Assembly (NCBI GenBank): GCA_018062965.1
Contig: JAGORG010000002.1
Coordinates: 1,860 to 65,859, forward strand
DNA: 64,000 nt
Direction: 5' to 3'
Source of the DNA: Minisyncoccota bacterium
GTDB taxonomy: Bacteria > Patescibacteriota > Minisyncoccia > Phycocordibacterales > UBA5272
Of this stretch, positions 24,795 to 62,121 are shown piece after piece (the first letter of the stretch is position 1; each line of letters opens with the position of its first letter). The translations under genes were made by a program, and so were the position numbers. The notes under the pieces were generated by a model, which searched no databases, was not told the DNA's origin, and saw only the letters and a program-made list of their open reading frames with translations.

Positions 24795-24812
24795 AACCAC
24801 CAATACAAAATA

Positions 24813-24848
24813 AAAACACCTCAGTTTATCTCTGAGGTGTTTTTATTT
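24813..24848 (+). terminator. rho-independent terminator (acacctcag..ctgaggtgt plus T-run)
   Basis: Perfect 9 bp stem followed by tttttatttt. Confidence 0.65.
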
Positions 24849-24852
24849 TGTG

Positions 24853-24926
24853 CGCAGTCGATGGGATTTGAACCCACGACCCCCGCCGTGACAGGGCGGT
24901 GCTCTAACCAGCTGAGCTACGACTGC
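24853..24926 (-). tRNA. tRNA-Asp (GTC)
   Basis: Cloverleaf read by hand. Anticodon loop CTGTCAC. T-arm GTGGGTTCAAATCCCAT. Confidence 0.8.
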
Positions 24927-24981
24927 ATATTTATTTGTGTCTACACATTCTAGCAGAAAACTAGAATCCGTCTAACACGGG

Positions 24982-25055
24982 TGTCGGCGGGTGGGAACGA
25001 TCCACCGACCTTGGGCTTATGAGTCCCACGCTCTAACCAACTGAGCTACGCCGAC
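24982..25055 (-). tRNA. tRNA-Met/Ile2 family (CAT anticodon) with an atypical T-loop
   Basis: D-arm TAGCTCAGTTGGTTAGAGC. Anticodon loop CTCATAA. The T-loop reads ATCGTTC instead of the usual TTCGAAT. Confidence 0.6.
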
Positions 25056-25089
25056 ATATATTCTTTTAATCTATCACCTCATAAGCCAA

Positions 25090-25141
25090 CTGACTATAGC
25101 GCTTATGTGTGCCCGCGCGTAGCAAACTGAGCTACGCTGAC
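25090..25141 (-). pseudogene. degenerate partial copy of the 5' half of the adjacent tRNA-Met
   Basis: Begins GTCAGCGTAGCTCAGTT and includes a CATAAG loop, but cannot be folded into a cloverleaf. Confidence 0.4.
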
Positions 25142-25152
25142 ATATTTTAACC

Positions 25153-25188
25153 TTTAAGCGCCGCCTCACTACGTGGGCGGCGCTTAAA
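25153..25188. other. strong hairpin aagcgccgcc..ggcggcgctt inside the tRNA cluster
   Basis: 10 bp GC stem. Confidence 0.5.
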
Positions 25189-25216
25189 CCAAAACCTTGT
25201 CACGTAGTTTACTTGT

Positions 25217-25285
25217 TGCGGAGACTGGAATCGAACCAGTGTCCCGAGGTTATGAGCCTCGTGAGTTACCTCTACTCTACTCCGC
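25217..25285 (-). tRNA. tRNA with CAT anticodon (Met or Ile-lysidine type)
   Basis: Anticodon arm CGAGGCTCATAACCTCG. T-arm ACTGGTTCGATTCCAGT. One acceptor-stem mismatch. Confidence 0.65.
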
Positions 25286-25353
25286 TATATTATAGGACAC
25301 ACACTCTTTTTGAGTCAGAATATAATACCACACCATAGAACAAACTACAAGGA

Positions 25354-51701: not shown

Positions 51702-53213
51702 ATGAATAATCACACCAGAAAGTTTTTCATATACACTCGCAAATCAACCGACACAGAAGATCGGCAAGTGAGAAGCATTTCAGATCAACTGGCCGAACTC
51801 AAAGAATTAGCGGTTAAAGAGCAAATTGAGGTCGTTGATATTTTTGTAGAAAAACAAACCGCTAAAAGTCCGGGTCGGCCAGTATTTAATGAAATGCTTC
51901 TCCGTATCGAGCAAGGCGAAGCAAACGGAATTTTAGCGTGGCACCCCGACCGATTAGCGAGAAATAGTGTTGATGGTGGCAAAATTATCTACTTGCTCGA
52001 TACCGAAAAACTTGCCGAACTGAAGTTCCCAACTTTCTGGTGTGATCCGACACCGCAAGGCAAGTTCATGCTTTCAATCGCTTTTTCGCAATCCAAGTAT
52101 TATGTTGATAATCTCTCGGAAAATATTAAGCGTGGTCATCGCAACAAAGTGAAAGACGGAATATGGCCTCAAATGTCTCCGCTCGGATATGTAAATGTGA
52201 AAGGTGCTGGAATAGTACCCGATGAGAATATTGCTCCGTTAATCAAGAAAACATTTGAGGCATACTCGTCTGGGTCTTTCACTTTGCGCCAACTCCGCGA
52301 CAAATTTAACGGACTTGGCTTGAAGCGAAAAAGCGGAAAGGAACTTGCGGTGTCGAACTATCAGCAAATCCTCAAAAATCCTATTTACACCGGTCTGATG
52401 AGGTATAACGGAGAGATTTTTGAGGGAAAGCACGAACCGATTATCACAAAGAAACTTTTTGATTCCGTTCAAGAAGTGATGATGAGAAAATCTAAGCCGA
52501 AAGGTAGAGGCTTGAAAGATTATCTATACAGGGGATTTTTCCGTTGCGGAGAATGCGGTTGTTTCATTACTACCGAAACACAGAAAGGCCATAACTATCT
52601 CCGCTGTACCAAACGGAAAAATCCTTGTGAGCAAAAATATGTCCGCGAGGAAATCATCACTTCTCAAATCAAAACGGAATTACAAAAAGTTTCTTTGCCA
52701 CTCGATTGGGCAAACTGGATGATTGTCGAAAACGAGAAAGATCGACAATCGGAAGTCCAATCGAGCGAGATTTTTTCTCAGAAGACAAAAGATGAAATTT
52801 CTCTTTTGGATTCCAAAATTGAGAAGCTGATGAACGCCTATTTGGAAAACGTTTTATCACTTGAGGAATATCGTGATTCTAAAAACAAGTTGGTTGCCTC
52901 AAAACAGCTTCTCAAAGAGAAATTCTCATTTTTTGAGAAAAAATCTCATAATCGGTTCGAACTTGCTGATAGATTCATAAAATCAAACGTAGAATTGGCA
53001 AACGAGGGAACAAATGAAGATTTTCTTCATTTGTTCAAAAAAGTCGGTTCGAACTTTTTAATTAAAGATCGAACCGTACTTTTTGAGCCACGCGGAGCGT
53101 GGCGAATCCTTTCAGAATCAGGATTTTGTGGGGGGAATACAGAACAGACGGCGCTTCGCGCCGACCATATTTTTTCGGGAAATTTGAATTCCGAATTCTG
53201 GCGGAGAATGTGA
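51702..53213 (+). CDS. large serine recombinase (resolvase N-domain, recombinase domain, zinc ribbon)
   Basis: N-terminus YTRKSTDTEDRQVRSISDQ with the catalytic Ser. RCGECGC...C...C zinc ribbon. About 503 aa. Confidence 0.85.
   Translation: MNNHTRKFFIYTRKSTDTEDRQVRSISDQLAELKELAVKEQIEVVDIFVEKQTAKSPGRPVFNEMLLRIEQGEANGILAWHPDRLARNSVDGGKIIYLLDTEKLAELKFPTFWCDPTPQGKFMLSIAFSQSKYYVDNLSENIKRGHRNKVKDGIWPQMSPLGYVNVKGAGIVPDENIAPLIKKTFEAYSSGSFTLRQLRDKFNGLGLKRKSGKELAVSNYQQILKNPIYTGLMRYNGEIFEGKHEPIITKKLFDSVQEVMMRKSKPKGRGLKDYLYRGFFRCGECGCFITTETQKGHNYLRCTKRKNPCEQKYVREEIITSQIKTELQKVSLPLDWANWMIVENEKDRQSEVQSSEIFSQKTKDEISLLDSKIEKLMNAYLENVLSLEEYRDSKNKLVASKQLLKEKFSFFEKKSHNRFELADRFIKSNVELANEGTNEDFLHLFKKVGSNFLIKDRTVLFEPRGAWRILSESGFCGGNTEQTALRADHIFSGNLNSEFWRRM
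53085..53204. repeat. IR-b': inverted partner of 51555-51674, inside the recombinase 3' coding end
   Basis: Ends with ...ctggcgg exactly at the tRNA 3' end. Confidence 0.9.
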
Positions 53214-53288
53214 GATTCGAACTCACGGAACCGGTAAAGGTTCGACGGTTTAGTAAACCGTTGGTTTAAACCACTCACCCAATTCTCC
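53202..53288 (-). tRNA. type II tRNA (long variable arm, G73, Ser-like) with an apparent ACT anticodon
   Basis: Acceptor GGAGAAT/ATTCTCC. T-arm GTGAGTTCGAATCTCAC. Anticodon stem ACGGT/ACCGT with loop TTACTAA. Needs a tRNAscan check. Confidence 0.6.
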
Positions 53289-53304
53289 ATATATTTTGGA
53301 AACG

Positions 53305-53452
53305 TGACTGCACGATGAGAATCGAACAACCTTCGCTACGCTATCGCTAAGCTACGGTTTCGGAACCACTCGGTTCCGATTCCTCCTCCACGGGGAAACT
53401 CCCGTTTCCCCGACCCCTTTCCCGTTCGAATCTCATCATCTCTTCCACCTGT
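53305..53452. repeat. about 95 bp structured core flanked by inverted tRNA 3'-end-like fragments
   Basis: Left arm GTTCGATTCTCATCG (minus sense). Right arm GTTCGAATCTCATCATCTCTTCCACC (plus sense). Internal hairpins tcggaacc..ggttccga and ggggaaa..tttcccc. Confidence 0.45.
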
Positions 53453-53493: not shown

Positions 53494-53581
53494 GCGGAGA
53501 CGATGAGATTCGAACTCATGAAGGGCGTAAACCCTTGCCTCGTTAGCAGTGAGGTGCCTTCGACCAGCTCAGCCACGTCTC
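53494..53581 (-). tRNA. tRNA-Ser (GCT)
   Basis: Anticodon loop CTGCTAA. Long variable arm AAGGG..CCCTT. T-arm CATGAGTTCGAATCTCATG. Discriminator G73. Confidence 0.8.
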
Positions 53582-53823
53582 CATTCTTCTATTACTTTTC
53601 TAAAACCGTTACCTCCTTTATACGACTTAAGAAATTTTTCTACTTTTCTTACTTCTTCGATTGAGGAAAACTCTTTTGAGCAAAGTAGACTCCATTCACC
53701 GCGAGAAGTAGTACGTCCACCTGTATGACTCTTATGTCTTTGTGTTCGCTTAGAAAGTTCAAGACACGAACCAGTGTAATGCTTACCTGTATTCTTGTCT
53801 TGAAGAACATAAACGAAAGCCAT
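53569..53823 (-). CDS. GIY-YIG nuclease domain protein (YhbQ/UPF0213-like)
   Basis: FVYVLQDKNTGKHYTGSCLELSKRTQRHKS...GEWSLL resembles the YhbQ family. The stop overlaps the tRNA-Ser 5' end. Confidence 0.6.
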   Translation of the reverse strand: MAFVYVLQDKNTGKHYTGSCLELSKRTQRHKSHTGGRTTSRGEWSLLCSKEFSSIEEVRKVEKFLKSYKGGNGFRKVIEEWRRG

Positions 53824-53839
53824 TTTTGTAGTATAAACC

Positions 53840-53906
53840 CTTGCCTCGTTAGCAGCTCGCCCCGCTAAGCGGGGTAAAGTGCCTTCGACCAGCTCAGCCA
53901 CGTCTC
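53840..53906 (-). pseudogene. partial duplicate of the tRNA-Ser(GCT) 5' half with a 23 nt hairpin insertion
   Basis: GGAGACGTGGCTGAGCTGGTCGAAGGCAC[TTTACCCCGCTTAGCGGGGCGAG]CTGCTAACGAGGCAAGGGTTTA, then diverges into the GIY-YIG gene. Confidence 0.6.
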
Positions 53907-54147
53907 CGTATTATTTTTGTCTAAAACACTTATTGTTGTGCACGCTTTGATATATATCTTATCAGGTCTTCGCTGTAAGCTCGCATCAAAAGTTTGCTAA
54001 CTTTTGATATCTTCGGAGCCAAGCTTCTCGAGCAACGTCTCCGTATTTTTATACAATTTACCTACACACTTCCTGCACGTTTTTATTCAATATTTTCCTA
54101 CTGAATGTGTTGTATCTTATCACAAAACACCCTTCTGTGCTACCGAA

Positions 54148-61740: not shown

Positions 61741-61747
61741 GTATCTG

Positions 61748-61819
61748 TGACCCTACGCGGAATCGAACCGCGCTTCCAGGCATGAGAAGCCTGTGTCCTA
61801 ACCGATAGACGATAGGGCC
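61748..61819 (-). tRNA. tRNA-Glu (CTC)
   Basis: Anticodon arm CAGGCTTCTCATGCCTG. T-arm CGCGGTTCGATTCCGCG. Confidence 0.7.
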
Positions 61820-61912
61820 ATATTTATTTTATATTTTTAGAAACATGAGCTTTAGAAACTATTTTACTTTGGACACAGGAGACCTGCTTAGCCTCCCGGC
61901 ACGATGTGCTCA

Positions 61913-61937
61913 TCGCCTAACCGATAGACGATAGGGC
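61913..61937 (-). pseudogene. 24 nt duplicate of the tRNA-Glu 5' end
   Basis: GGCCCTATCGTCTATCGGTTAGG repeated 116 bp upstream of the intact gene. The following sequence contains CCTGTGTCC, complementary to tRNA positions 22-30. Confidence 0.55.
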
Positions 61938-62121
61938 CAAGTATTTTATTTGTTTAAAACATGAACTTTGAACACCTTAGAAACAGGACCAAAGTACCCG
62001 AAACTATACCATATTTAGGGTAACTTTTCACGTCATGGACAGCATTTGATATTCCACCAAAAAAGGAATAGTATGGGACTTAAGAACGTTCCTTAATCAA
62101 CAACCAACCTGGAGGTGAACC

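Follow-up and report, generated by a model that had tools for sequence, protein, structure and literature searches.

Phage T4 SegB is a free-standing GIY-YIG homing endonuclease encoded in the tRNA gene cluster, and it cleaves tRNA-gene DNA of relatives that lack it (PMC2330249; PMC13096335). A 2026 report says that it promotes segmental amplification of tRNA loci. Minimal stand-alone GIY-YIG proteins also exist (UPF0213 / prokaryotic Slx1-like; PDB 1ZG2, 1YWL; PMC1564403), but no tRNA linkage, hairpin or partial tRNA duplication is described for them in that paper. Partial tRNA genes are classically produced by integrase-mediated insertion at att sites, which leaves one intact and one partial copy of a tRNA gene flanking the inserted DNA (PMC9897764, and Williams 2002 as cited there). 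Mobile GIY-YIG ORFs of fungal mitochondria, for example at Allomyces atp6, insert at gene ends and leave a displaced fragment of the host gene. In REP/RAYT and the Rickettsia palindromic elements, a short GC-rich palindrome is associated with one small nuclease gene and is inserted into structured RNA genes.

Here we analyzed a window of 64,000 nucleotides from a Minisyncoccota bacterium (GCA_018062965.1, contig JAGORG010000002.1), in which truncated 5' copies had been noted just upstream of three tRNA genes (Met, Ser and Glu). The original prediction proposed a common mechanism rather than chance, for example integration events targeting the 5' portion of tRNAs or a processing or regulatory leader, with a possible leader-body pairing at Glu. 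We find that the three copies are real. Their proposed interpretation is supported only in part: a common mechanism acting on the 5' part of tRNA genes is supported, a regulatory leader is not. The Ser copy is the upstream arm of an 84-aa GIY-YIG nuclease gene lodged inside a duplicated tRNA gene, an arrangement that recurs next to tRNAs across many bacterial phyla. The agent would be a homing-endonuclease-like cassette, not a classical integrase. The Met and Glu copies look like tandem duplications of the same kind without the gene, although their link to the nuclease is circumstantial.

Results

Three tRNA genes are preceded by partial 5' copies

The window is about 42% G+C and encodes a 1200-aa RNA polymerase beta' subunit and an NAD-dependent ligase. 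The GIY-YIG protein it encodes is named in one source as from a Candidatus Pacebacteria (Patescibacteria) MAG. ARAGORN and Rfam agree on six tRNA genes, all on the minus strand, so that higher coordinates are upstream:

24852-24926, minus strand: tRNA-Asp
24979-25056, minus strand: intact tRNA-Met(CAT), starting 86 nt downstream of the start of its copy
25215-25286, minus strand: second tRNA-Met
53199-53288, minus strand: tRNA-Ser(ACT)
53494-53582, minus strand: intact tRNA-Ser(GCT)
61747-61819, minus strand: intact tRNA-Glu(CTC)

Each tRNA was searched against the window with blastn-short. Nucleotides 1-29 of tRNA-Ser(GCT) matched 53907-53879 (100%, E 2e-11) and nt 34-55 matched 53855-53834 (100%, E 3e-7). 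Nucleotides 1-23 of tRNA-Glu matched 61938-61916 (100%, E 5e-8), and nt 1-18 of tRNA-Met matched 25142-25125 (17/18). Local alignment with shuffling extended the Met copy to 33/41 identities over 25141-25101 (z 12.6) and gave z 23.7 for Ser and z 14.6 for Glu. All copies have the same sense as their tRNA. Rfam scans of the loci at gathering and at permissive thresholds found only the tRNAs, the weak hits being noise.

Repeats can confuse assemblers, and many short-read contigs begin or end exactly at these tRNA repeats (contigs L002, L003, L036, L046, L089, L117 and L192; L numbers denote contigs and loci other than the window). Cassette-bearing tRNA loci are therefore likely to be under-represented or broken in metagenome assemblies. 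We nevertheless consider an assembly artefact of a metagenome-assembled genome very unlikely. The Glu structure is base-for-base identical in another assembly record (L001), the Met copy occurs in an independent sample, and the Ser architecture occurs in dozens of independent assemblies. Two Logan contigs start inside the tRNA-Glu 5' part, at or 3 nt short of the end of the 23-nt repeat.

The Ser copy is one arm of a GIY-YIG cassette

Inspection of the Ser locus revealed two features that the original prediction had missed, a GIY-YIG ORF between the copy and its tRNA and a third, older Ser fragment further upstream:

53965-54045, minus strand: older, decayed promoter-proximal plus 5' tRNA-Ser fragment (AAAAATAC-GGAGACGTTGCT...), with approximate limits and an uncertain 3' limit
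53834-53907, minus strand: defective 5' copy of tRNA-Ser(GCT), comprising nt 1-29, the hairpin insert and nt 34-55, and missing the T arm and 3' acceptor strand
53856-53878, minus strand: 23-nt GC hairpin insert TTTACCCCGCTTAGCGGGGCGAG (TTTA-CCCCGC-TTA-GCGGGG-CGAG), which replaces CTCA of the anticodon stem
53569-53823, minus strand: 84-aa GIY-YIG nuclease ORF
53312-53327, minus strand: direct partial copy of the tRNA-Ser T arm and 3' acceptor, downstream of the intact gene, with an inverted copy at 53424-53442

The ORF opens with an ATG after 10 nt of spacer, and its TGA stop lies within the first bases of the intact tRNA-Ser(GCT). Its product matches the GIY-YIG profile PF01541 with 40.9 bits against a cut-off of 22.6 (E 2.7e-10). 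The catalytic positions (Tyr of GIY, Tyr of YIG, Arg, His, Glu, Asn) are present, and Y5, Y16, G18, R26, H30, E62 and N72 are invariant in 18 homologues. The closest sequences with solved structures are 1ZG2 and 1YWL (E 3.5e-6 and 0.014); more distantly, the N-terminal half aligns with residues 5-33 of the I-TevI catalytic domain. The Pfam domain covers residues 2-68 and no other domain is present, so the protein lacks the DNA-binding module that gives I-TevI and the Seg proteins a long recognition site.

The GIY-YIG frames have no stop codon of their own. They run into the tRNA (53569-53582 in the window; L020-L029, L034, L037, L045, L074, L083 and others), and in many Ser(GCT) loci they stop at the TAA of the anticodon loop, so that tails such as GDVAEWSKAPHC are encoded by the tRNA. 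RNase P cleavage of a co-transcript would leave the message without a stop codon.

We asked whether the copies could be att-site scars of tyrosine or serine integrase elements, since a large serine recombinase gene (51702-53213, plus strand; Resolvase + Recombinase + Zn ribbon) lies next to the Ser locus and ends inside the 3' end of tRNA-Ser(ACT). A resolvase-domain gene also follows tRNA-Ser(GCT) in L005 (2499-3149), and this may be a second, integrase-type element using the same tRNA-Ser locus. However, integrase scars duplicate the 3' part of the tRNA and flank kilobase-sized elements. Here the duplicated segments are nt 1-55 (Ser), 1-23 up to about 48 (Glu) and 1-41 (Met), the intervals are 35-330 nt, the only recombinase lies outside the repeats, and no integrase is present at Met or Glu. 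The 3' fragments at Ser are a separate feature on the other side of the gene. This reading is largely refuted by the anatomy and we regard it as very unlikely.

Two further features mark the downstream side. The tRNA-Ser with anticodon ACT (A at position 34) lies directly downstream of tRNA-Ser(GCT), and ARAGORN makes the same call in a relative at 54% GIY-YIG identity (L016, 2499-2586); A34 outside tRNA-Arg is unusual in bacteria. A conserved element of about 115-145 nt lies between tRNA-Ser(GCT) and the next gene (53300-53445, minus strand; L007 2530-2672, L009, L014, L016, L021). It is closed by a helix whose 5' arm (GGGATTCGAA) is the inverse of the tRNA T arm and whose 3' arm is a partial T-arm/acceptor copy. 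RNAalifold predicts 30 pairs, 9 of them with compensatory changes, and no Rfam family matches.

The architecture recurs at tRNA genes of many phyla

Every close homologue whose contig was retrieved (54-77% protein identity; L004, L005, L007, L013, L014, L016) shows the same order: a hairpin-bearing 5' copy of tRNA-Ser(GCT), the ORF, then the intact tRNA. In each genome the copy matches that genome's own tRNA. The insert keeps the form T(C/T)TA-CCCCGC-loop-GCGGGG-CGAG, with one compensatory change in L014.

A scan of one genome per species with a profile of the protein returned 80 loci, from many Patescibacteria lineages and from MAGs labelled Omnitrophota, Planctomycetota, Bacteroidota, Ignavibacteria, Calditrichota and others. 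The ORF, which lies outside any intron or intein, abuts a same-strand tRNA in 76 of the 80. Three of the four exceptions are contigs that end about 290 nt after the ORF start. In 59 loci the tRNA lies downstream, and in 52 of those it starts 226-269 nt after the first base of the ORF; in 17 the tRNA lies only upstream. The abutting tRNAs belong to twelve amino-acid types: Ser (four anticodons), Gly, Tyr, Pro, Glu, Met, Lys, Ala, His, Thr, Asp and Gln. Of the 59 loci with a downstream tRNA, 35 have a 5' copy of at least 14 nt upstream of the ORF and 47 have the hairpin there. Where the tRNA is upstream, the copy downstream of the ORF is the defective one, often with a perfectly identical 3' part.

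A hairpin marks the defective copy

A palindrome, YCCCGC(C)-N2-4-(G)GCGGGR, lies 30-60 nt before the ORF and/or just after it in 70 of 80 loci, always in the defective tRNA copy. In the clearest cases it replaces the anticodon arm (17 nt for 17 in L056, 16 for 17 in L033; also L039, L059 and L080), whereas elsewhere it sits in the D loop or the variable region. Its outer pair is complementary in 99 of 107 instances (C-G 57, T-A 41, A-T 1), and the loop is the same within a locus but differs between loci. We rejected the hypothesis that it is an intrinsic terminator, because no T run follows it. The only other match in the window (7804) is an ordinary terminator with a T run.

Cassette loci also contain copies without an ORF. 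In L007 an ORF-less hairpin copy lies directly in front of the tRNA. In L056 (1095-1440), L082 (1080-1380) and L059 (1430-2000), tandem arrays of three or four units lie in front of an intact tRNA next to a GIY-YIG gene, each unit of about 100 nt consisting of flank, tRNA 5' part and hairpin. L059 has two units of copy plus ORF, the second ORF being truncated. In L080 (1381-1880), the hairpin-bearing tRNA halves that flank the ORF and tRNA-Ala(TGC) are not copies of tRNA-Ala; joined together they would form a complete Gly/Pro-like tRNA with a hairpin in place of the anticodon arm. This suggests that the defective copy can travel with the ORF to a new tRNA.

The ORF is under purifying selection and groups by tRNA species

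The dN/dS of the ORF is 0.12-0.16, while synonymous sites are near saturation (dS 1-1.5). Over that same divergence the non-coding 5' copy has stayed 100% identical to the intact tRNA inside each genome (51/51 nt here), and it must therefore be renewed, homogenised or constrained. Average-linkage clustering of the 80 proteins groups them by tRNA species rather than by host; for example, one Ser(GCT) cluster spans eight or more candidate phyla plus Omnitrophota and a PVC-group MAG. In 696 kb of related contigs, all eight GIY-YIG matches lie within 300 nt of a same-strand tRNA. A GIY-YIG gene abuts tRNA-Glu carrying the same 23-mer in 5 of 120 related loci, one of which (L145) has a hairpin-bearing Glu fragment, and 2 further loci have one beside an adjacent tRNA-Ser(CGA). 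Searches for orthologous empty sites of the Glu copy and of cassette-bearing Glu loci among 120 metagenome loci matched only the tRNAs, and no orthologous filled/empty pair was found. No relative of the nuclease was found among viral contigs.

The Met and Glu copies are short, lineage-specific duplications

The Met and Glu loci contain the following features:

25153-25188, minus strand: perfect 13-bp GC-rich hairpin (TTTAAGCGCCGCC-10 nt-GGCGGCGCTTAAA) between the second tRNA-Met and the Met copy, not followed by a T run and conserved in L219
25101-25142, minus strand: degenerate 5' copy of tRNA-Met(CAT)
25078-25087, minus strand: 10-nt reverse complement of the tRNA-Met anticodon loop and 3' stem, which also pairs with the copy's own CATAAGC
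61943-61972, minus strand: sigma-70-like promoter match (TTCAAA-18-TAAAAT; consensus match only) that ends 5 nt before the Glu copy
61880-62000, minus strand: upstream unit of a 119-nt tandem duplication, comprising about 60 nt of flank, tRNA-Glu nt 1-23 exact (61938-61916) and a diverged region to about nt 48
61871-61879, minus strand: CCTGTGTCC, the exact reverse complement of tRNA-Glu nt 22-30, part of the duplicated flank

Neither locus has an ORF, an ORF remnant or the signature hairpin. A tblastn search of the window, including the Met and Glu spacers, found no second GIY-YIG copy, and the short ORFs in the spacers are meaningless. A megablast of the Met region against a phage collection gave no match. 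Both copies are duplications of promoter plus the tRNA 5' two-thirds, with periods of 86 nt (Met) and 119 nt (Glu). The Glu locus is fully described as a plain tandem duplication in which nt 1-23 are identical between the units, the flank is largely conserved, and the anticodon-stem region is rewritten; mean identity over the whole two-unit alignment is 78%. The original prediction noted CCTGTGTCC but missed its counterpart in the other unit, CCTGTTTCT, as well as the tandem duplication itself and the 10-nt antisense at Met. Like the Ser copy, both copies stop before the T arm and are most altered around the anticodon arm.

To assess conservation, we examined 108 metagenome loci that share the tRNA-Glu 23-mer and have at least 200 nt upstream. 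Only two or three carry an upstream copy (L118, L172, perhaps L174), and their breakpoints differ. Of 263 tRNAs in related contigs, only one has an upstream 5' copy. Homologues of the 201-aa neighbour of tRNA-Glu are few and are not next to a tRNA. At the Met locus, relatives at 74% identity (L220, L222) have tRNA-Met and tRNA-Asp with no copy at all. A strain whose neighbouring protein is 96% identical (L219) has the Met copy, but its 5' part has been rewritten into a new palindrome (GTCGACG...CGTCGAC). In that strain the tRNA block (Met2, hairpin, Met copy, Met; the contig ends within tRNA-Met) is inverted relative to the 396-aa gene (L219 2292-2631 versus window 24795-25353).

These data bear on whether the copies are functional leaders, whose transcripts would start at the duplicated promoter and carry a tRNA-like 5' segment and an antisense stretch that pairs with the tRNA body and controls processing or expression. 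In favour of this view are the promoter-like site in front of the Glu copy, the 9- and 10-nt antisense stretches, and the identity of the Ser copy to its tRNA together with its conserved hairpin. The predicted minimum-energy fold of Glu leader plus tRNA is unusually stable (z -5.0) and includes the pairing. However, this stability is largely forced by the repeated acceptor strand pairing with the real 3' end, the 9-mer is not conserved elsewhere, and the Met fold is barely better than shuffles (z -2.3). Given that the copies are sporadic, that the Met copy evolves fast between near-identical strains, and that no Rfam family matched, a conserved regulatory leader is not supported and we consider it unlikely.

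Discussion

Our results suggest that the partial 5' tRNA copies are by-products of recombination at tRNA genes, driven by or associated with a small selfish nuclease cassette that lives inside tRNA genes. We hold this explanation to be somewhat more likely than not; it is firm for Ser and circumstantial for Met and Glu. What the analysis establishes directly is the three-part module at the Ser locus, its occurrence at many tRNA species in many phyla, the grouping of nuclease lineages by tRNA species rather than host, purifying selection on the ORF, and a defective copy that is renewed or homogenised rather than simply decaying. The mechanism, including nuclease activity itself, is inferred, by analogy with free-standing homing endonucleases such as SegB. 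In this view the nuclease would break tRNA-gene DNA and repair would use the cassette-bearing allele as template, with the two tRNA-derived repeats that flank the ORF acting as homology arms; this would copy the ORF in and leave one intact and one defective tRNA copy. The hairpin may mark or immunise the defective copy, or be the protein's binding site, and the ORF-less Met and Glu duplications may be scars or aberrant repair products of the same process.

Several arguments weigh against this model. No cleavage activity, target site or filled-versus-empty allele pair was observed, an 84-aa protein has no DNA-binding domain to give sequence specificity, and the intact tRNA beside the ORF would itself be a target, which leaves immunity unexplained. 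The wide distribution could also reflect old vertical inheritance of a domesticated gene rather than mobility. Moreover, the Met and Glu copies could be ordinary short tandem duplications, arising by replication slippage or unequal crossing-over at highly transcribed, structured tRNA promoters, with only the Ser copy belonging to the cassette. The plain two-unit structure at Glu, the absence of ORF, remnant and hairpin at both loci, and the fast, neutral-like evolution of the Met copy fit this rival. So do ORF-less, hairpin-less copies in genomes where we saw no cassette nearby (L136, L118, L172). It remains a serious alternative, although we think it the less likely one: three of six tRNAs in one 64-kb window carry copies, against roughly 0.4-3% per tRNA in relatives, all three copies stop at the same place and are altered in the anticodon-arm region, and cassette loci themselves generate ORF-less copies.

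A bolder reading, which we regard as possible but less likely than not, is that the 84-aa GIY-YIG gene, the hairpin and the partial tRNA duplication together form an undescribed selfish cassette that spans several phyla and homes into tRNA genes, using the tRNA-derived repeats as built-in homology arms. The hairpin-substituted tRNA fragment would serve as the immunity mark or as the handle that gives a domain-less nuclease its specificity; in the boldest version it would be a transcribed, tRNA-derived guide bound through the hairpin.

If the cassette is what it seems, tRNA genes in candidate-phyla-radiation bacteria and several other phyla host a very small, very widespread mobile nuclease that has gone unnoticed. 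It would explain stray 5' tRNA fragments that confuse tRNA annotation, and why assemblies break at these tRNA loci. It would also offer a minimal system for asking how a catalytic-domain-only GIY-YIG enzyme finds a specific target, and give the uncharacterised UPF0213/Slx1-like bacterial family a testable biological role. For this window itself, the Met and Glu copies are most likely neutral scars with no role in tRNA expression.

GIY-YIG homing genes, tRNA-linked SegB and partial tRNA genes from integration are already known (PMC9897764). What appears new is a minimal GIY-YIG gene embedded in a partial tRNA duplication with a hairpin-substituted anticodon arm, of which we found no description in the literature collection searched. 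Like the present gene, SegB is a GIY-YIG nuclease gene lodged among tRNA genes, and its reported amplification of tRNA loci parallels the tandem partial duplications seen here (PMC2330249; PMC13096335). SegB is, however, phage-borne, and in these papers it is not described as flanked by a hairpin-marked half copy of its target tRNA, whereas the present gene is chromosomal and consists of a catalytic domain only. SegB is also much larger and has a DNA-binding part. The minimal UPF0213 / prokaryotic Slx1-like proteins have the same size and also lack extra domains (PMC1564403). Integrase insertion likewise results in one intact and one partial tRNA gene flanking inserted DNA, but integrases duplicate the 3' part and carry kilobases of cargo plus an integrase gene, while here the 5' part and the promoter are duplicated and the insert is 0-255 nt of coding DNA (PMC9897764). 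With the mobile GIY-YIG ORFs of fungal mitochondria the cassette shares an ORF that abuts or overlaps the host gene, a replacement copy of the gene end that travels with the ORF, and a displaced pseudo-fragment that remains; there the targets are protein-coding genes in organelles, the 3' end is duplicated, and no anticodon-arm hairpin substitution is known to be involved. As in REP/RAYT and the Rickettsia palindromic elements, a short conserved GC-rich palindrome accompanies one small nuclease gene, but here the palindrome is found only in the defective tRNA copy beside the gene and is not dispersed.
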